Shown here: positions 1 to 13,020 of the stretch, one piece after another
Layout: the number at the start of each line of letters is the position of its first letter
Numbering within the stretch: position 1 is the first letter of the stretch
From: Candidatus Thorarchaeota archaeon
GTDB lineage: Archaea > Asgardarchaeota > Thorarchaeia > Thorarchaeales > Thorarchaeaceae
DNA: 22,694 nt
Reading direction: 5' to 3'
Assembly: GCA_048882485.1 (NCBI GenBank)
Contig: JBHLRP010000040.1
Location: forward strand, 6,004-28,697
Translations under genes and position numbers: made by a program
The notes under the pieces: model-generated
What the model saw: the letters and a program-made list of their open reading frames with translations, nothing else
Databases searched by the model: none
What the model was told of the DNA's origin: nothing

Positions 1-330
1 TTCCACGGGAGTAAAAGCTGACTCAATATTGGAGGAGAGTGGAAGAAATAGGACCATCATTATGATGTAAAGGAAAAAGTATGGAATCAGGAATTGCTTT
101 CCTCGAGATACGGCGAAGTATCGTAAATTTCCCCTATATCGATAGTTATTGTAGGTGAAACCAGCCAGGACGAAGAAGATGGCTATTGTAAAACTGCTCA
201 GATGAATCGTAGCAGGATTGAGCCATGGTATCATGGAATGGACTAGTATGACGAAAGTGATTCCGATGCCTTTTGTCACCTCAATCCATTCAAGCCGAGG
301 TAGTTGGGGCTCACCTTCCATACCTTCCAT
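1..330 (-). CDS. Acyltransferase family 3 (Acyl_transf_3, OafA/YeiB-like) membrane protein, 3' end runs off the window
   Basis: Not in the ORF track. Manual translation from ATG at 330 (or 321) gives MEGMEGEPQLPRLEWIEVTKGIGITFVILVHSMIPW...FTIAIFFVLAGF...RGKQFLIPYFF, open to position 1. This matches the R-x-W-I-[DE]-x-x-KG-x-x-I-x-x-V-x-x-x-H, FF-x-x-[SA]G and R-x-x-x-x-x-x-PY motifs of the family. Confidence 0.85.
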   Translation of the reverse strand, partial: MEGMEGEPQLPRLEWIEVTKGIGITFVILVHSMIPWLNPATIHLSSFTIAIFFVLAGFTYNNYRYRGNLRYFAVSRGKQFLIPYFFLYIIMMVLFLPLSSNIESAFTPVE

Positions 331-430
331 GAGTATATTCTCCGCCCTTGTTCCTCTACAAAGTTTTCATTCTTTTAGGGCTTCATCCTGAAGAGTCTTT
401 AGGCGCCCCTTCAGTTGTAGATTGATTCTC

Positions 431-1426
431 ATGTCAGAAGTACTGATTCTTTCACAGAATGAAGTGCAATCCTGTCTTCCCATGGGAAAGACGATCGAGG
501 CAGTACGCGAGGCATATATTGCATTCGCCAAGGGCAGAGTGCAGCTAGCACCAGTTGCACATCTGGATGTCAAGCAGTATAACGGAGAGGTCGATATCAA
601 GCCCGGGTATGTCGAGGACTTTGGAATCATCGGGACAAAGATTGCCAGCGGATACTACGACAACCACAAACTCGGACTGCCGCCAGGAGTTGCCGTCATT
701 GTACTTATGGATCTGAAAACGAGTATGCCCATCGCTATAATGGATGGGACCTACATCACTGCCTACAGAACTGGTGCTGCTGGTGCTGTTGCAGCCGATG
801 TCTTGGCCAGGAAGAATTCAAAGATTGTAGGGGTTGTAGGCACCGGAACCCAAGGAAGAATGCAGATTATGGCCCTGAGAGAGCTCTTCAATATAGAAGA
901 GATTCGGGCTTGGGACATCGTCGGAGAAGTAGCTGAGCGCTATGCAAAGGAGATGGCTGAGAGTCTGGGGATAGAAGTAAATGCGTTTTCAGATGTGGGG
1001 GATGTCGTTCGAGATGTGGATATCGTCGTGACAGTGACTCCGTCTAGAGAGGCATTAGTCAAGAGTGATTGGATAGGAGAGGGCGTCCATATCAATGCAA
1101 TAGGAGCAGATGGCCCAGGGAAGCAAGAACTGGACCCCAAGATTGTGGCGAATGCAGACAAAATTGTGGTGGACAGCCTTGTCCAGTGTCGAAGGATTGG
1201 AGAGATTCAACATGCTTTAGCACAGAACCTCATTACTGAAGACAATGTGCATGCCGAGATAGGCCAGATTCTGATTGGTGACAAGTCTGGTCGGGAGTCA
1301 GACGAGGAGGTAACCATGTTTGATTCAACTGGTCTAGCAGCTCAGGATATTGCTGCTGCATACCTGGTCTATAAGGAAGCCAAGGAAAAGGGACTGGGAC
1401 TGACTACAAATCTACTAGACGTCTAA
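431..1426 (+). CDS. Ornithine cyclodeaminase / mu-crystallin family NAD(P)-dependent enzyme (EutC-like / archaeal alanine dehydrogenase family)
   Basis: Motifs GEVDIK, K-x-ASG-YY-DN-x-x-LGLP, T-x-x-RTGAAGAVA, GTGTQG Rossmann loop, HINAIGAD-x-PGK-x-E and FDSTG-x-A-x-QD. ATG at 431 preferred over TTG at 422. Confidence 0.92.
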   Translation: MSEVLILSQNEVQSCLPMGKTIEAVREAYIAFAKGRVQLAPVAHLDVKQYNGEVDIKPGYVEDFGIIGTKIASGYYDNHKLGLPPGVAVIVLMDLKTSMPIAIMDGTYITAYRTGAAGAVAADVLARKNSKIVGVVGTGTQGRMQIMALRELFNIEEIRAWDIVGEVAERYAKEMAESLGIEVNAFSDVGDVVRDVDIVVTVTPSREALVKSDWIGEGVHINAIGADGPGKQELDPKIVANADKIVVDSLVQCRRIGEIQHALAQNLITEDNVHAEIGQILIGDKSGRESDEEVTMFDSTGLAAQDIAAAYLVYKEAKEKGLGLTTNLLDV

Positions 1427-1438
1427 GGTGAGTGTGTC

Positions 1439-2401
1439 GTGGAAGAAATCAGCTTGGAGAGCATTCGGAGGGCGCAAAAGACCATCAAGAAATATGTCAA
1501 AGCCACACCGATTGTCCGTTCATATTCCCTCAGTCAACGGTGCAAGGGCGAAGTCTATCTTAAGCTGGAAAATCAGCAGCACACTAACTCGTTCAAGGTT
1601 CGCGGTGCACTAAACAGAATGTCACAGCTGAAAGCTAGAGAGAGGAAGAAGGGAGTTGTCACCGCCTCGTCTGGAAATCATGCACAAGGCGTTGCATATG
1701 CCGCGCAGCAGCTCGGCATACCTGCCACAATAGTCGTACCAAATGAGGTCTCCAAGGCCAAGTTGAAGAAGGTCAAGGAGTTTGATGTTGATGTTGTTTT
1801 GGGCGGAGGGTTCGATGAGGTAGAGGCAAAAGCTAGGGAGATGGCCAAGACCGAGAAACTGACCTATGTAAGCCCCTACAATGACTACGCGGTAATGGCT
1901 GGACAGGGCACTATTGGCCTAGAGATTATTGAGGAAATCGACTCCTTTGACTCGATTGTCGTACCTGTTGGGGGAGGCGGATTGATTGCAGGCATCGCTG
2001 TGGCTGTCAAGAGCACTAGACCTGATACTCAGGTGATAGGAGTCCAGACACCGGGGTCAGCCACAATGTATGAGTCATGGCTCGCAGGCGAGGTCGTTGA
2101 GATAGAAGAGTCAGACACCCTTGCAGAGGCATTTTTGGGAGGGGTTGAAAAAGGGTCTCTGACGCTGGATGTCATAATGAATTATGTCGACGATATTGTG
2201 CTAGTCGATGAAGAAACCGTGGGAGATGCAATCCGCCTTCTTTGGATTGAGGAGAAACAGGTGATTGAGGGAGCGGGAGCGACTGCCATAAGCCCCCTGC
2301 TAGAAACGCCTGACCGATTCAACGGACTTACTGTTGTCTGTGTTGTAAGTGGAGGCAATATCGAACAGCCACTATTTGACCGAATTGTTGGAAGAACTTA
2401 G
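1439..2401 (+). CDS. PLP-dependent serine/threonine dehydratase (short form, no ACT domain; EutB/TdcB-like)
   Basis: LKLE-x-x-Q-x-T-x-SFKVRGA (PLP lysine), [15 protein letters not shown] and SGGN motifs. AGGTGA RBS upstream, 12 nt after the previous stop, so probably co-transcribed. Confidence 0.93.
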
Positions 2402-2421
2402 CGAATCATGTAAATTCGGTC

Positions 2422-2462
2422 AATAGAGTCATCGGCTCAGGAATGCGCTCGTTGTCATTCTT
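2422..2462 (-). repeat. Inverted att-like site; contains an exact 12-bp copy of tRNA-Gly(GCC) nt 1-12
   Basis: Plus strand 2445-2456 GCGCTCGTTGTC equals 3759-3770. The minus strand reads AAGAATG-ACAACGA-GCGCATTC-CTGAGCCGATGACTCTATT, which aligns with the tRNA 3' end and trailer TCGAATC-CCGGCGA-GCGCACCA...TTCAGCCCTATGACTCAATT. Confidence 0.7.
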
Positions 2463-2514
2463 ATTCCTAATGTAGTTTCTAGGAGCGCGGACGAAAGGGA
2501 ATCATTCCTCTGAA

Positions 2515-3543
2515 TCATTGATATCGATTTATCCTCCAGAGGACTGATGCCAACAGCTGGTATTGATTCCAAACATGTCCTGGTCTTATTTCAAAGCCTT
2601 TTTCCTTCAGACCTAGACTGTAGGCGATTGATGATCTTAATTTCTTGAACTCTCTGAAGACTACGAAAGCATACACTCGATGCTCAACATATACACTCGA
2701 TTCAGCACTGGAAATCTCCTGAATAAACTCTCGAAGCTTTGTTCTATTGCACTGCTTATCCTGTAGCCATTGAGTCTTGAAACGTTCGATCGATTTTGAT
2801 GGTTCACCCCAAGGAGTTCGTTTTCCTTTATGCTTTTTTTCAAATTGTTTGCGAAAGAGAGAGAGTTGCTTGAAGTGTTCTTTGACTTCCTTATTGGTGA
2901 GTTCACAGAACAATTGATCGAAAGATTTTGGATATGGTGGTTCAAGTACTAACACACGAGTTTCATTCCTTAGCAGTCCATCCAACAGAGTGATGATTTC
3001 ATCTTCTAGAGTTTCGACAGCTATTATCCAACGCAATGGATTGGATACAATCTTGGTCAAACGTGTCACATCCTCTATGTCTATGTTGAAACCACGCCCC
3101 AAAAGATAACGTTCAATGTCCTTAACAATCGTATTTCTGTGCCTCTCAATAAATGGTTGAATTTCAAGTACAGGTGGACCCTCCCATTGAAAACTGCTAT
3201 CATCAGTTGCTTCAAGTGCTGTTTCTATCCATTCTACCTCGATTGCTCTCAATTTCCTGAGTGCACGAATATAGTATTTGTTACACATGGCATGTTCTAC
3301 ATAGAGTAATTCTGGAAGAATAGATTCCAAGTAGTTGTGTTTGGTTTTTGAAGCTCCTGAACGTATGCTTCTGAATCGCATAATGGATTTGGGAAGTCGT
3401 ATAGTAGTGGAGTATTCTACGCCCATGACCTGAGGAATTCTTTTTTCATCTTGGTCTGTCCATGTAATTTCAAAACATGTTCCACTGACTGAGAAGTCTT
3501 TCAATTCATTTGACCTTTTCTTCCCATCTTCTTTACTAACCAC
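2515..3543 (-). CDS. Hypothetical protein (orphan, AT-rich, 342 aa)
   Basis: Long ORF with protein-like composition, visibly more AT-rich than the flanking housekeeping genes. No family recognised and the start codon is uncertain. Confidence 0.7.
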   Translation of the reverse strand: MVSKEDGKKRSNELKDFSVSGTCFEITWTDQDEKRIPQVMGVEYSTTIRLPKSIMRFRSIRSGASKTKHNYLESILPELLYVEHAMCNKYYIRALRKLRAIEVEWIETALEATDDSSFQWEGPPVLEIQPFIERHRNTIVKDIERYLLGRGFNIDIEDVTRLTKIVSNPLRWIIAVETLEDEIITLLDGLLRNETRVLVLEPPYPKSFDQLFCELTNKEVKEHFKQLSLFRKQFEKKHKGKRTPWGEPSKSIERFKTQWLQDKQCNRTKLREFIQEISSAESSVYVEHRVYAFVVFREFKKLRSSIAYSLGLKEKGFEIRPGHVWNQYQLLASVLWRINRYQ

Positions 3544-3725
3544 TCCTATTTTCCCTCCGTTCTTAAGTTGTTATGCATCGTTATGAAAGAACTACCACTT
3601 CCTCTAATCAAGACTTATCTTGGAGTTGTGTTCTAGAAGGGGAGTCATTGCTGTTTCTTCTGTTGATGTTCCTTAATTGTATATTGACAATAAGGGGTCG
3701 TGCGTAGTGGCACCAAAGCAGTATC

Positions 3726-3732
3726 TTTAAAA
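3726..3732 (+). promoter_or_regulatory. TATA-like box of tRNA-Gly(GCC)
   Basis: TTTAAAA lies 27-33 nt upstream of tRNA position 1. The TCC tRNA has TTTAAAT at a similar distance. Confidence 0.55.
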
Positions 3733-3758
3733 CAATCCCAGATAGGAAAATCCTCTAA

Positions 3759-3896
3759 GCGCTCGTTGTCTAAAGAATGTCAGTTTCTGATGTTCTGACT
3801 AAGGGGCTATGATGGATCCCTGCCAATGCGCGGGGGTTTATCCCTCGGAACCGTAGAACGGATCCGGCCCGGGTTCGAATCCCGGCGAGCGCACCA
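3759..3896 (+). tRNA. tRNA-Gly(GCC) with two introns (3773-3802 at position 14/15; 3826-3858 at 37/38), CCA encoded
   Basis: Removing both introns gives GCGCTCG TT GTC TAGGGGCTAT GAT G GATCC CT GCC AC GGATC CGGC CCGGG TTCGAAT CCCGG CGAGCGC A CCA, a clean cloverleaf colinear with the intronless tRNA-Gly(TCC) at 16552. Both introns show bulge-helix splice geometry. Confidence 0.93.
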
Positions 3897-3996
3897 CTTC
3901 TTCTTCAGCCCTATGACTCAATTCTTCTAAAGGCAAGTCTTAGGAAGCCCTTATCAACAACTACCAGGAATCAAACACAAAATCTTGGTGAAGCTG

Positions 3997-4173
3997 ATGA
4001 GCCACAAAAGAGCAATAGTTTGGGCAGTAGCGGGAGTCTTCATAATGTTCTCGTTCTTCGAGCTAATGAATTTGGCATTCAGTAGTGGAGACATCCTTAT
4101 AGGACTCGTATTGACACTAATAGCAGCGGGAATTGGCTTCTATATACTAGGATACGGCTTTGACATAGAATAG
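3997..4173 (+). CDS. Small two-TM membrane protein (cassette 1)
   Basis: Two hydrophobic segments. GGTGA RBS before ATG 3997 (the track starts at TTG 3985). Confidence 0.65.
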   Translation: MSHKRAIVWAVAGVFIMFSFFELMNLAFSSGDILIGLVLTLIAAGIGFYILGYGFDIE

Positions 4174-4194
4174 ATAGGCTAAATGAATTCATAG

Positions 4195-4216
4195 TCGATT
4201 CCCAACCAGCGCACTA
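4195..4216 (+). repeat. Degenerate tRNA-Gly 3'-end repeat R1
   Basis: TCGATTC-CCAACCA-GCGCACTA, 17/22 identical to 3875-3896. Confidence 0.7.
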
Positions 4217-4234
4217 TTCCCCTAATTGTGGTTT

Positions 4235-5317
4235 CTATTTTACCAGACTCTCAAAAAGCCGAGCTGATCTATTATCCTGAGGATCAGTTTCAACTGCCTG
4301 CTTCAATGCTTCCCGTGCTTCCTTGATGCGGTTCTGCTTTAGCAGGGCAATTCCAAGGTCACACCAGGCAGCTGTGAGTGACGGGTCAATTCCAATTGCC
4401 GATCTTATTGCAATTTCCGCTTCTTCGTATTTGCTTTGAGCGAGCAAGCATTTGCCCAATGTGTGGGGGAAGCCAGCATATTCAGGGGACTCTTCAGCCA
4501 GTTTCCTATACTTGGCTTCAGCTTGGGGCATGCTTCCCAAACCACTCAATGAGATAGTGAACAACTGCCTAGCTCTAGGATTAATTCGACCCAGTTCTGC
4601 TCGTTTAGTCGAGAGGTCTATTAACCCCATCTCTTCAAGCTTTACCCCAAGTCTATCGATTGCAAAGTCAGTAAGTGGCTCAATGCTTATTGCTTTCTCA
4701 TATGCCTCAAGGGCTTCATCCAACATGCTTTGCATGAGCAGGACAACTCCTAGTTTGACCCACACTACGTAGCTCCGGCTGTTGAATTGAAGGGCTTTCT
4801 GATAACTATGGATAGCTTCTTCGTATTTCTGGTCGCGTTGTTGAAAATCGGCCAACTTCTCCCACTGAAATGAATCATCTGGATGGGTTCTCACGCTTTC
4901 TTCATAGGCTTCCTCTGCTGATACTTCAAGACCTAGCTCAGCAGATAGCTCAGCAATGTGGTTCCATGATGATGTGTCATCTGGTTTTCTAGAAACTGCT
5001 TCGCGAAAGCATTCTATTGCCTCAATCTTGAGGCCTTCTGACATCAAGAAGAAACCTAGCTGCCTCAGGGCGTTGGGACTCGCTTCATGAGTCCGAGCAG
5101 CCTCTCTTAGCATGGTCTTGGCAGCCTCTCTTTTACCATGATTGTAAAGGAATATTGCGTAGGAAGTCAAACCCGCCTCGAATTCCGGATAAATAGATGT
5201 CAATTCTATATAGGTATCCTCAGCTGCTCTGTGATCTCCTTTCTGTTCAAACTCAATGGATTTGGTCAAGAGTCCAAATGCTCTTTCATGTCGTATCCAA
5301 TTCCGAATCCTACGCAA
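4235..5317 (-). CDS. Tetratricopeptide repeat (TPR) protein (cassette 2)
   Basis: Recurrent roughly 34-aa units such as WVKLGVVLLMQSMLDEALEAYEKAISIEP and WCDLGIALLKQNRIKEAREALKQAVETDP. Confidence 0.9.
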   Translation of the reverse strand: MRRIRNWIRHERAFGLLTKSIEFEQKGDHRAAEDTYIELTSIYPEFEAGLTSYAIFLYNHGKREAAKTMLREAARTHEASPNALRQLGFFLMSEGLKIEAIECFREAVSRKPDDTSSWNHIAELSAELGLEVSAEEAYEESVRTHPDDSFQWEKLADFQQRDQKYEEAIHSYQKALQFNSRSYVVWVKLGVVLLMQSMLDEALEAYEKAISIEPLTDFAIDRLGVKLEEMGLIDLSTKRAELGRINPRARQLFTISLSGLGSMPQAEAKYRKLAEESPEYAGFPHTLGKCLLAQSKYEEAEIAIRSAIGIDPSLTAAWCDLGIALLKQNRIKEAREALKQAVETDPQDNRSARLFESLVK

Positions 5318-5403
5318 GGCCTATTCTTCCAGTGATAGCATTGGATTAGTAGCATATAGATTATTGTGAGCGGAACTTGATGCATCCGTTACAAGCCTAT
5401 GAA

Positions 5404-5430
5404 CCGGGTTGGAATCTAGAGGGCGCACTA
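5404..5430 (+). repeat. Degenerate tRNA-Gly 3'-end repeat R2
   Basis: CCGGGTTGGAATC-TAGAGG-GCGCACTA, 21/28 versus 3869-3896 with one gap. Followed by ATTCTCCTTCAGTTGAGTCAAT, which resembles the tRNA trailer CTTCTTCTTCAGCCCTATGACTCAAT. Confidence 0.8.
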
Positions 5431-5456
5431 ATTCTCCTTCAGTTGAGTCAATCCGC

Positions 5457-6786: not shown

Positions 6787-6810
6787 GTTCGAATCTCTGT
6801 GAGCGCACCA
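6787..6810 (+). repeat. Degenerate tRNA-Gly 3'-end repeat R4
   Basis: GTTCGAATC-TCTGTGA-GCGCACCA, 21/24 versus 3873-3896. Followed by ATTCTCATTCACCGTCCTATG (tRNA trailer: CTTCTTCTTCAGCCCTATG). Confidence 0.9.
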
Positions 6811-6862
6811 ATTCTCATTCACCGTCCTATGCAGGATAACACGTATATCATGAGAGCGTGAG

Positions 6863-11180: not shown

Positions 11181-12122
11181 TTAATCCGGAATCCCGTGAA
11201 TCCTAACGGCGTTCTCCCAATAGAGCTTGCTAAGGACTGATACAGGCAAATCTAGACCATTGATGAAGGTCCCACCAGTATCTTTTGTGTCTGCATCATC
11301 GAATGGGAGGGGTCTTTCTCGGACATTGGTTTCCCATAGAAGCCTCTGGGCAAGATATCTTCCGGCAAAGTAGTCCTCACTCCCCCTGTTGGTCGACAAA
11401 TCCGTACCAAACATGATTCTATCAGAGTACTTGAGCAAGAAATCACGAGCCTTTTCGACATCCTTGCTGAGCTCTCTTGCCATCCATCGGGAAGATGCCG
11501 TATCAATGATTACATTTGGAAATCTATCCAACCATCTGGCAAGGTTTGATAGGTGATGTATCTCTGGCTGTGAGCCAAAGTGGGGAAGCTGAAAGACAAG
11601 GCGGGGATGGCGTTCAATAACATTCTCAAGTTGTGCAAGACTATCAGTCTTTGTTCCGTATTTCGTTTTATCTTGATAATGTAAGTCATAGTATGTATCA
11701 GGATCGGCAACATGAAGCAGAAGAGGGACGTTATGGTCCTCGAGGGCTTGAAAGATTGGGTCTAGGCGGAGATCATCAATTCTGAAGTCATCAGGGACCT
11801 CTTGGTAGTAGTCCCTCCAACGAGGACCAAACCACATCTTTGCAAGTCCATAGCCCTCTGCCTCAATTCTCTCAATAACTGCTATGACCTTGTCCACCTC
11901 AAAATTCGCAACATCACTAAGAGATAGATACTTGGCAAAAACGAACCGATTCGGGAACCGCTTTCTTATTGGTTTGAGATTACCCTCTCCATGCACAATA
12001 GCGACCTGAGATGCTACGTCAAACTCCTCTTCGATCTTCACCATCTGCATCAGATCATCTGAATGACCGATATGCGTGTGCGCATCGAAAATTTGCCCTT
12101 TGTATTTCCACTCTTCCGTCAA
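11181..12122 (-). CDS. Amidohydrolase superfamily metal-dependent hydrolase (Amidohydro_2-like)
   Basis: FDAHTH, LLLHVAD, PHFG, IDTA and RIMFGTD motifs, with C-terminal Y-x-ENA. Confidence 0.9.
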   Translation of the reverse strand: MTEEWKYKGQIFDAHTHIGHSDDLMQMVKIEEEFDVASQVAIVHGEGNLKPIRKRFPNRFVFAKYLSLSDVANFEVDKVIAVIERIEAEGYGLAKMWFGPRWRDYYQEVPDDFRIDDLRLDPIFQALEDHNVPLLLHVADPDTYYDLHYQDKTKYGTKTDSLAQLENVIERHPRLVFQLPHFGSQPEIHHLSNLARWLDRFPNVIIDTASSRWMARELSKDVEKARDFLLKYSDRIMFGTDLSTNRGSEDYFAGRYLAQRLLWETNVRERPLPFDDADTKDTGGTFINGLDLPVSVLSKLYWENAVRIHGIPD

Positions 12123-12877: not shown

Positions 12878-13020
12878 TTAACATGCACCTCAATTCCTCT
12901 GTTCTCGATGATTCATAAAAAACCCACGCTTGACTTCACATCGCAGTCTTTGAGTATGTCTTCTACATGACTCAATTCTTAAGATGACCTTTGATTCTGG
13001 CGAGTTGAGAGAATTCAATT

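Follow-up and report, generated by a model that had tools for sequence, protein, structure and literature searches.

Archaeal tRNA genes carry non-canonical introns, can be split, and act as hot spots of gene exchange, and how these features originate is a long-standing question. To our knowledge, the process has been caught in the act at population level only once, at one locus in Caldiarchaeum. The locus described here, in a Candidatus Thorarchaeota genome (G000, the genome of the window), poses the question in a confined form: how did the first 12 nt of a tRNA-Gly(GCC) gene come to stand a second time about 1.3 kb upstream of the gene, with one long orphan reading frame in between? The window, i.e., the whole stretch of 22,694 nt that was analysed (contig JBHLRP010000040.1, positions 6,004 to 28,697), has the following features at this locus, given in window coordinates:

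1439-2401, plus strand: PLP-dependent dehydratase-type gene (PALP; Pfam PF00291, E 3.9e-83)
2402-2444, plus strand: relic of the original tRNA-Gly promoter and leader, with a TATA relic, TGTAAAT, at 2409-2415
2445-2456, plus strand: stub, nt 1-12 of the resident tRNA-Gly(GCC), truncated after D-stem position 12
2457-3724, no strand assigned: AT-rich insertion cargo, 38-40% GC
2515-3543, minus strand: ORF342 (P0001), an orphan protein of 342 aa
3604-3648, plus strand: 45-nt element with matches in G020:C11
3725-3758, plus strand: putatively imported promoter and leader, with a TATA box, TTTAAAA, at 3726-3732, 33 nt before the tRNA
3759-3896, plus strand: tRNA-Gly(GCC), functional, with encoded CCA (RF00005, 33.1 bits)
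3897-3935, plus strand: trailer, common to G011:C36, whose site is empty

The duplication is real and exact. GCGCTCGTTGTC occurs at 2445-2456 and again at 3759-3770, where it forms nt 1-12 of tRNA-Gly(GCC), and the identity covers exactly 12 nt, with T versus A directly before the two copies and ATTC versus TAAA directly after them. A preliminary description of this DNA, made from the sequence alone, had reported the duplication, TATA-like sites at similar distances before both copies, and a single AT-rich orphan ORF between them. All three observations hold: TGTAAAT begins at 2409, 36 nt before the upstream copy, to be compared with the 33 nt that separate TTTAAAA from the downstream one, and the one long ORF between the copies lies in a region of 38-40% GC, against ~47-51% in the flanks. 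The tRNA gene itself is interrupted twice, with exon 1 at 3759-3772, a D-loop intron at ~3773-3802, and an anticodon-loop intron at ~3826-3858; Rfam RF00005 detects it with two inserts of ~35 nt each, and ARAGORN missed it at 3759-3896. When the 41 tRNAs of the genome were scanned within +/-10 kb on both strands, for which ~0.08 chance 12-mer matches are expected, the only match was this locus, besides one tandem pair of paralogous tRNA genes. A chance 12-mer was rejected on this expectation and because the alignments of relatives end exactly at 2456. The left junction is also spanned by an independent contig from a mangrove metagenome (2317-2562). Continuity over 3604-3648 is taken from the original assembly and from equal depth in k=31 contigs, and the stub is independent of that join.

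The borders of the insertion are set exactly by empty alleles. The dehydratase gene is the conserved upstream neighbour that anchors the orthologous locus in relatives, and in seven genomes of the same genus (G001, G002, G005, G009, G011, G014, and G015) it is followed ~45 bp later by an intact tRNA-Gly(GCC), the very arrangement that had been predicted for an empty site. BLAST alignments of these seven relatives with the window end exactly at 2456 and restart at 3802, so that neither the 1.3-kb insert nor the 30-nt D-loop intron is present in them; the order in these genomes is leader-GCGCTCGTTGTC-T-AGGGGC..., which joins 2456 to 3771, and the old promoter is the only one that they possess. 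DNA identity to the seven genomes up to 2456 ranges from 74 to 94%, G011 is 96% identical over 3802-5440, and the trailer in L022 is identical throughout to that of the window. All relatives are collinear across the locus. The earlier proposal of a ~1.3-kb cassette that came to lie in the 5′ part of the tRNA gene, bringing a new promoter with it, is thus borne out by the seven empty alleles, with one correction: the point of entry is not in the acceptor strand but in the D stem, between nt 12 and 13.

Upstream of the stub, 2402-2444 is the ancestral promoter and leader of the tRNA, now decaying. This segment is orthologous to CGAATCCTTTAAATTCGCTCACCAGAGTCATCGGCTCAGCAAT, which stands directly before the live tRNA in all seven relatives. 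The old leader of G000 has 6 differences from the relatives' consensus, among them a T>G change in the TATA box (TTTAAAT to TGTAAAT). In the X7 strain the T>G change is kept and the ancestral state is found at 4 of the remaining changed positions, and in a diverged strain of another study the left junction is bridged and the TATA change is common with G000. A reading of the insert as a 1.3-kb intron, spliced from a transcript of the old promoter, was rejected because the old TATA box is mutated and a complete second promoter and 5′ end are present.

By sequence comparison, the new promoter and the D-loop intron are of another genus's type. The stretch 3725-3825 has an 87% BLAST match to the native tRNA-Gly locus of G080:C20; over 3725-3758 the identity, counted on the printed sequences, is 28/34, and in a G080-like contig from run X1 the only listed difference within 3725-3758 is at 3756. 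Homology to G080:C20 and to the X1 contig starts exactly at 3725 in both, at the TATA box. The D-loop intron is identical at 30/30 positions to that of G020:C82, which belongs to another genus, and is absent in the seven relatives with the same locus; it is common in genera g5, g6, and g7, and within genus g1 it is confined to G003 and G000. The second intron, in the anticodon loop, is identical to those of G005 and G011. Because promoter, leader, and intron match the native tRNA-Gly of another genus, the promoter, exon 1, and the D-loop intron probably arrived together with the orphan ORF as one tract. The imported DNA most likely extends past the duplication into the tRNA, covering exon 1 and the D-loop intron, which argues for replacement of the gene's start rather than for a plain insertion with a 12-bp core at its borders. 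The D-loop intron may instead have been gained independently of the insert, since it lies 2 nt outside the duplication.

On balance, it is probable that a site-specific break in the D arm was repaired with a foreign allele, and that the 5′ end of the gene was replaced in the process. The starting state would have been a resident tRNA-Gly(GCC) ~45 bp behind the dehydratase gene and without a D-loop intron. A break at the start of the D arm, separating nt 12 from nt 13, would have been repaired from foreign DNA in which the same tRNA was present as the allele of another lineage. On the right side, homologous repair would have taken place inside the tRNA, with a presumed crossover in exon 2 (3803-3825), and on the left side the broken end would have been joined to whatever stood upstream in the incoming DNA. 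The product would be a dead stub (2402-2456), the cargo (2457-3724), an imported 5′ region (3725-3802), and the resident 3′ part of the tRNA. The imported promoter would now drive transcription of the tRNA, the old TATA box having been lost. We infer the site-specific double-strand break that would have started the event from the ends of the stubs. The enzyme presumably acted in trans; a homing-type nuclease is one candidate, an unrecognised recombinase another.

Stubs that end at the same base in related genomes point to a site-specific break in tRNA genes. In the g5 clade (G063, G068, G076, G078, and G089), the native promoter is followed by the stub GCGCTCGTTGT(C), then by 14-16 nt, and then by a complete allele; in G063, G068, G076, and G078, which were read to the 3′ end, both acceptor strands are changed in a compensatory manner (GCGTCCG/CGGACGC). 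The 16-nt spacer of this clade could be a remnant left after deletion of a larger element. In G073:C29, which comes from one more genome of the genus with matching promoter and intron, the promoter and the same 12-nt stub run into unrelated DNA. With stubs ending at nt 12 in G000, the g5 clade, and G073:C29 alike, three independent events in one tRNA species have the same break point.

Two further tRNA genes of the window's genome have comparable stubs made of promoter and 5′ end, and for both of them relatives have empty alleles. On C103, a tRNA-Lys gene is preceded, 2.7 kb upstream, by a stub consisting of a promoter and nt 1-11. The orthologue of this stub in G002, G005, and G016 is the live promoter; the present tRNA-Lys and its promoter resemble those of G012, and the tRNA body beyond nt 11 is not G002/G005-like. 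On C58, a tRNA-Ser has a 61-bp repeat (60/61) reaching from the promoter to nt 18; the corresponding alleles of G004 and G010 are empty. The breaks in the three tRNAs of this genome fall at nt 11, 12, and 18, and so not at one identical position. The incoming DNA upstream of the tRNA varies in length (16 nt, 1.3, 1.4, and 2.7 kb), with the resident break point fixed. The three insertions of the window's genome have no cargo gene in common, their cargo being unrelated. The new alleles differ from the old ones beside the break, by the intron at 14/15, by an acceptor change from CT to TC in g5, and by another D arm on C103, differences that hint at most at resistance of the new alleles to cleavage. 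A strict link between the end of the stub and the position of the intron fails, as the tRNA-Lys stub ends at nt 11 and the D-loop intron of relatives lies near 19/20.

Taken further, the idea of a break and repair leads to a more general reading, which we regard as tentative and rather doubtful: a trans-acting DNA endonuclease directed at the D arm of intron-less tRNA genes would spread the 14/15 mini-intron in Thorarchaeota. Clean repair from an intron-bearing allele would then amount to homing of a 30-nt intron without an intron-encoded enzyme, and repair from foreign DNA without upstream homology would yield stubs, captured genes, and promoter swaps. If this were true, tRNA introns beside the break would be immunity marks, and leader-embedded stubs, multi-intron tRNAs, and scattered tRNA fragments could accumulate over time.

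Compared with 40 relatives, the insert DNA gave no match except for the 45-nt element. A search of 5.8 billion proteins returned one homologue of ORF342 only, the Thorarchaeota MAG protein P0003 (54% identity), and a profile search of 1.8 billion proteins returned P0003 alone. Queries with P0001 and P0003 in sets of 41 and 87 genomes gave nothing beyond the window's own copy, the locus of P0003 was absent from the scanned metagenome contigs and genome contigs, and in no other searched genome did ORF342 adjoin a tRNA. Comparison of ORF342 with Pfam, PHROG, PADLOC, and PDB sequences gave nothing above noise; a structure search gave generic helical arrangements only (Z <= 7.2), and the ESM Atlas gave eukaryotic helical-repeat look-alikes only (TM <= 0.31). 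No nuclease domain was found in ORF342 by Pfam, PDB sequence, or structure searches. The AF2 model of the protein is poor (pLDDT 46), which makes an unrecognised recombinase fold conceivable, and ORF342 itself could be the mobility enzyme. Elsewhere in the genome, matches to LAGLIDADG_3 lie within long open frames of 709 and 694 aa. The 45-nt element matches G020:C11 at 100% and 94% (L025 1513-1549 and 2860-2905), each time directly before an ORF. Since it stands just upstream of start codons in genus g5, it is probably a fragment of the 5′ region of another module. The element shows raised depth and loose ends in runs X1 and X6, and it has no further copy in G000.

The closest precedent is the tRNA-Thr(GGU) of Caldiarchaeum subterraneum, where a 5′ fragment (nt 1-27) lies ~1.8 kb upstream of the intact gene (Sugahara, 2012, PLoS One 7:e32504, PMC3293823). 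The insert there starts where the fragment ends and reaches into the tRNA, with a new intron at 24/25, and it contains a repeated 545-bp unit and, beside the tRNA and on its strand, a putative recombinase ORF; the authors concluded that the intron was gained in the same event as the insertion, and proposed integration (PMC3293823). In both cases a 5′ tRNA fragment stands as a direct repeat upstream of the intact tRNA, the insertion is absent from other genomes, and the regenerated tRNA has an extra intron (here too, we infer, through a single event). Unlike in Caldiarchaeum, neither the insert nor the genome of the Thorarchaeota archaeon has a recognisable recombinase, the ORF is an orphan on the opposite strand, the insert has no other copy in the genome, the duplication is only 12 nt long, the promoter has been replaced, and other genomes show independent events with the same break point. 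In Caldiarchaeum the duplicated part includes the intron; here the intron lies 2 nt beyond the duplication.

A second parallel comes from the WHO elements at FBA1 in Torulaspora/Lachancea, which replace the 3′ half of a protein gene (Coughlan, 2020, eLife 9:e55336, PMC7282813). These elements encode their own LAGLIDADG nuclease, for which cleavage was shown (PMC7282813; Osborne, 2026, bioRxiv 10.64898/2026.08.13.744650). As with WHO elements, an essential gene is left intact with one end swapped for an alternative version beside the cargo, and the displaced end remains as a decaying fragment that starts at a fixed position near the cleavage site, here a presumed one. Unlike with WHO elements, the part replaced here is a tRNA gene's promoter together with its 5′ end, there is no recognisable nuclease gene, and cleavage is presumptive. 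After the one in Caldiarchaeum, the locus offers a second, better resolved case, in an Asgard archaeon, with exact borders, a foreign source type, and a decaying promoter. It suggests that the promoter and 5′ end of an essential tRNA gene are exchangeable without loss of function, that genes can be captured upstream of tRNAs without a visible integrase, and one way in which tRNA introns spread. If a nuclease is responsible, the protection of tRNA genes by introns becomes testable with defined sensitive and resistant alleles.

In integrative elements that target tRNA genes (with SSV-type and pNOB8-type integrases), it is the 3′ part of the tRNA that is duplicated; the host promoter is retained, and the element encodes an integrase. 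The present insert shares with them the tRNA gene as target, the bounding direct repeat, and the regenerated tRNA, but here the duplicated part is the 5′ one, a new promoter is required, and no integrase could be found. Classical integration is nevertheless the alternative to be weighed against break and repair, and we consider it unlikely though serious. A circular element, with an att site made of the promoter and the first 12 nt of tRNA-Gly, would have recombined within nt 1-12, its integrase acting in trans or since lost and the intron being either a separate gain or part of an att-site arm. Such an event would account for the direct repeats of a tRNA segment that flank the insert and for the reconstituted tRNA; the 61-bp, 98% repeat on C58 resembles a long att identity block, and the architecture is that of Caldiarchaeum, where integration was proposed (PMC3293823). 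However, tyrosine integrase (PF00589) had no match in the insert or in the 90.5%-complete genome, the control being positive in 14/14 genomes. The att model also predicts host sequence 3′ of the 12-bp identity, where the intron and foreign-type sequence are found; the tRNA side beyond the identity block is not of host type, be it the D-loop intron here or the G012-like tRNA body beyond nt 11 on C103. For the g5 clade the model would require an 'element' of 28 bp, and there the replacement affects both acceptor strands; the cargo ends beside the stubs have no common motif.

Far less probable is a transposon-like insertion with a 12-bp target-site duplication. It would fit the 12-bp identity here and, with position -1 counted, the one on C103. 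However, none of the 25 longest inverted repeats listed pairs the ends of the insert, Pfam detected no transposase family in it, and the genome has no other copy of the insert, its non-coding parts included. Moreover, promoters are duplicated also at C58 and C103, the repeat at C58 has 61 bp, and the imported promoter has its homologue in a native tRNA promoter.

It is equally improbable that an ancestral insert was deleted in the relatives via the 12-bp repeats or that the assembly is a chimera joined via the 45-nt repeat. The k=31 contigs do break at 3604-3648, and a precise direct-repeat deletion is possible in principle. However, the insert is missing in all seven locus-sharing relatives, over a range of flank identity from 74% to 94%, the new promoter and intron resemble those of another genus, and the old promoter has decayed in G000 only. 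Against a chimera, the depth left and right of the repeat is equal in two runs (34.1/38.8 and 7.3/6.7), and the stub does not depend on the join.

The preliminary description had also taken 2409-2456 for an inverted member of a family of tRNA 3′-end repeats and had suggested that ORF and tRNA might invert together. Read on the minus strand, the site is GAAT-N5-CGAGCGCA, and the sequence after it matches the trailer at 18/23 positions (p ~0.008). The match is weaker for ancestral leaders, and weaker also in G011, where the same trailer goes with an empty site, and upstream of CGAGCGCA only 5/11 positions agree with the 3′-end repeat family. A 7-nt acceptor complement is inherent to every tRNA, and for this reason, together with the weaker match of ancestral leaders and the orthology of 2402-2444 to the live tRNA leader of relatives, the inverted 3′-end copy was rejected. 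An invertible segment, with ORF342 and the tRNA between inverted sites at the tRNA 3′ end and at 2409-2456, is scarcely credible: the minus-strand motif with its trailer match and the inverted tRNA 3′-end copies upstream of other tRNAs (e.g., C103 4875-4904) speak for it, but 2402-2444 is the ancestral leader, conserved in seven relatives with trailers that are unrelated save that of G011, the ancestral leaders and G011 score lower against the trailer, and the inverted form is absent from four metagenome runs and from every relative, all of them collinear. The same four runs contained no excision or inversion joint and no empty-site contig among their k=31 contigs, where absence is no proof. 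The same genome has candidate one-gene modules behind tRNA 3′ ends, which end in copies of the T arm and the acceptor 3′ strand, whereas the present site is a 5′ stub with its own promoter and not such a copy. A clear 3′-end copy lies elsewhere in the window, at 6787-6815 (25/29).

The 12-mer GCGCTCGTTGTC is present twice in the window, at 2445-2456 and 3759-3770, and the flanks on either side of the two copies share no identity. A preliminary description of this 12-bp copy, the tRNA, the TATA-like boxes and the single ORF between the copies proved correct as written when the sequence was re-read. The features concerned are as follows.

1439-2401: PLP-dependent dehydratase-type gene, upstream of the insert
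2515-3543, minus strand: ORF342 (342 aa), the sole long ORF between the 12-mer copies
3604-3648: 45-nt element, with further copies at 1513-1549 and 2860-2905 of L025 (contig G020:C11, genus g5)
3759-3896, plus strand: tRNA-Gly(GCC), whose nt 1-12 are the second 12-mer copy

The tRNA-Gly, which scores 33.1 bits with the Rfam tRNA model and was missed by ARAGORN, carries an insert of about 35 nt in each of two places, the D loop and the anticodon loop. TTTAAAA (3726-3732) starts 33 nt upstream of it, and TGTAAAT starts 36 nt upstream of the first 12-mer copy. GC content is 38-40% in the ORF342 region vs. about 47-51% in adjoining genes.

The allele predicted for an insertion here, lacking the 1.3-kb insert, was found in seven same-genus genomes when window 1439-4300 was searched against 40 related genomes and the window was then compared with the fetched loci by BLAST. 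In all seven (G001, G002, G005, G009, G011, G014, G015), the dehydratase alignment (74-94% identity) ends exactly at 2456, and in five of them a second alignment begins one base further on, at window 3802. For G014, whose tRNA diverges from the window shortly past the anticodon stem, the sole match on that side in a whole-genome search spans 24 nt from 3802. In the relatives (MAGs, 62-88% complete), the sequence itself runs from the dehydratase stop codon through CGAATCCTTTAAATTCGCTCACCAGAGTCATCGGCTCAGCAAT to GCGCTCGTTGTC-T-AGGGGCTATGATGG; behind their promoter and leader thus stands a tRNA-Gly(GCC) that has neither the insert nor the D-loop intron, and the dehydratase side joins the tRNA without the window's new promoter. 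The most telling empty allele is that of G011, where contig C36 begins within the old leader and continues through an intron-less tRNA into the window's own trailer and downstream genes (96% over 3802-5440). The metagenome evidence, which consists of contigs throughout and not reads, spans both junctions: a mangrove-metagenome contig of 246 nt, from another study, covers the left one (2317-2562, with five differences), and contigs of two sediment runs cover the right one. Contig continuity over the 45-nt repeat (3604-3648) is based on the original assembly and equal depths.

Identity to relatives shifts at the tRNA. G011 is 88% identical upstream (window 1-2456) vs. 96% downstream (3802-5440), and G005, 94% identical upstream, lacks the module at 3897-4194; the tRNA therefore appears to be a recombination boundary between lineages. 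Behind the dehydratase gene of G015:C150 (L005) and G014:C344 (L007), the tRNA-Gly leaves tRNA sequence past GGATCCGGC, in the T-arm region; the gene there could be split, or interrupted by a long insertion or a large intron.

The stretch 2402-2456 is the stub of the resident tRNA gene: its original promoter, leader and first 12 nt. Across the seven relatives this leader hardly varies, even at 74% identity in the dehydratase gene. The window's copy departs from their consensus at six positions, one of which changes the TATA box from TTTAAAT to TGTAAAT. A diverged mangrove strain with the insert shares the TATA change yet is ancestral at four of the six positions; loss of the TATA box was therefore an early step in the decay of the old promoter, which continued afterwards. 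An earlier reading of 2409-2456 as an inverted member of a 3′-end repeat family did not hold up, as the minus-strand 7-mer CGAGCGC simply complements the acceptor 5′ strand; upstream of it, the T arm is matched at only 5 of 11 positions. The reversed leader agrees with the trailer at 18/23 positions, a somewhat unusual score (reached by 42 of 5000 shuffles and 0.7% of genomic windows). This match is treated as coincidence because it is weaker in every ancestral leader and in G011 (same trailer, empty site), and owes part of its score to decay mutations. Inversion of the segment, also proposed, was seen in neither the relatives nor the metagenome runs examined. Far downstream of the tRNA, parts of the tRNA-Gly trailer recur as an exact 14-mer, ATGACTCAATTCTT (12967-12980), and as a 17/19 copy (11852-11870).

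Homology links the new promoter and leader (3725-3758) to their native tRNA-Gly counterparts in G080, of genus g5, with 87% identity over window 3725-3825 by BLAST and 28/34 over 3725-3758 by our own count from the printed sequences. A G080-like contig from metagenome run X1 has one listed difference within 3725-3758, and homology to both begins exactly at the TATA box. G020 and the window have identical 30-nt D-loop introns; introns at this position, frequent in genera g5, g6 and g7, occur within the window's genus only in G003 and the window. Intron 2 is identical to those of G005 and G011 and differs from those of G020 and G080. On the simplest reading of these comparisons, the promoter and leader, together with exon 1 and the D-loop intron, would have arrived with the cargo, with a crossover to resident sequence in exon 2 (3803-3825).

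Stubs of the same tRNA recur in other genomes. In five g5 genomes (G063, G068, G076, G078, G089), a promoter at the usual distance is followed by GCGCTCGTTGT(C), 14-16 nt, and a complete tRNA-Gly with the 5′ acceptor strand GCGTCCG. The 3′ strand is CGGACGC in the four genes readable to the 3′ end (all except G089, which leaves tRNA sequence in the T-arm region); the two acceptor strands thus carry compensatory changes, and what stands first is a stub of the common allele, now within the leader. The replaced allele of G076 (L072, G076:C28) has the stub but lacks the D-loop intron present in the sister genomes, indicating that the intron comes and goes independently of the stub. In G073:C29 (L076 1477-1522), a different promoter and the same 12-nt stub precede at least 670 nt of unrelated DNA, and the intact tRNA-Gly lies on another contig (L047, G073:C7); this may be a scattered 5′ fragment like that of the ‘type A’ genome of Caldiarchaeum. 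The junctions of the window, the g5 clade and G073:C29 read ATTCTT, AGTGCT and CATGTG, which makes them independent events, each ending at nt 12.

In the window's genome, 41 of whose tRNAs were scanned, two more tRNAs are affected. On contig C103, a second copy of the promoter box TTCCGAAACCTCTATAACCGAA, with a diverged leader and nt 1-11 of tRNA-Lys(CTT), lies 2.7 kb upstream of the gene. This distal copy corresponds by orthology to the promoter in use in G002, G005 and G016, while the present tRNA and proximal promoter are 93% like G012, with a D arm unlike that of G002 and G005; the cargo comprises an uncharacterized 493-aa ORF and a protein kinase. On C58, a 61-bp repeat (60/61) running from the promoter to nt 18 of a tRNA-Ser encloses 1363 bp; the stub adjoins the SRP RNA gene, and the locus is empty in G004 and G010. 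Inverted copies of the tRNA-Lys 3′ end were also observed, at 4875-4904 of L027 (G000:C103; 97%, about 3.6 kb upstream of the tRNA-Lys, beside a GNAT acetyltransferase gene) and at G005:C88:7590-7614; in G011, this acetyltransferase gene lies directly 3′ of the tRNA-Lys. This suggests past inversions around tRNA ends. In G011:C12:23301-24256, the distance between the matches to the tRNA-Ser body and to its promoter plus 5′ end exceeds that in the window's genome by about 810 nt, and the gene may contain a large insertion.

Both integration and break-and-repair fit the anatomy of the locus. We favor the latter, and consider it reasonably probable that the gene start was replaced through break and repair. 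A site-specific double-strand break in the resident tRNA gene would be repaired from a foreign allele, and one-sided homologous repair with end joining at the other side would yield exactly the observed pattern. Four lines of evidence argue for this: the resident break point stays the same, whereas the length of foreign DNA ahead of the tRNA ranges from 16 nt to 2.7 kb; foreign-type sequence extends beyond the duplicated block (the intron in the window, the C103 D arm and, in g5, the two acceptor strands); the cargoes have neither related genes nor a motif common to their ends; and no tyrosine integrase was detected in the window's 90.5%-complete genome. However, no nuclease was identified; ORF342 might be one. 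A site-specific break mended from a foreign allele resembles the WHO elements of yeast, in which one end of an essential gene is exchanged and the displaced end persists as a fragment starting at the cleavage site (PMC7282813). The att-type alternative, catalyzed by an integrase, is less likely but still plausible here; it follows the model proposed for Caldiarchaeum, where the element-borne attachment site contains the 5′ part of the tRNA with an intron (PMC3293823). The tRNA-Thr of that archaeon is the sole prior description of the same architecture, with a 5′ fragment, an insert and a regenerated tRNA with an extra intron (Sugahara et al., 2012). New here are the exact borders obtained from many empty alleles, the exchange of promoters together with the decay of the old one, the foreign affinities shown by the new promoter and intron, a break point recurring in independent lineages and, compared with Caldiarchaeum, the lack of a detected recombinase.

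The cargo protein ORF342 has one homologue (P0003, 54% identity, from a MAG named Thorarchaeota by its source) in a search of 5.8 billion proteins and a profile search of 1.8 billion representatives. It had no match in protein-family, defense, phage or solved-structure libraries, and a structure search with a poor model returned generic helical matches only. Between the window and the mangrove strain, 16 of 17 listed differences in ORF342 change an amino acid and one is silent; under neutrality (3:1), one silent difference or none has a probability of about 0.05, which, in contigs of only 3-4x depth, points to relaxed or diversifying selection. The 45-nt element at 3604-3648 (CAAGACTTATCTTGGAGTTGTGTTCTAGAAGG...) matches, at 94-100%, the G020 element found directly before the start codons of two genes, and probably derives as a fragment from the 5′ region of another module. 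In metagenome runs it shows raised depth and several different flanks, and mobile one-gene modules may share it as a 5′ UTR or promoter element.
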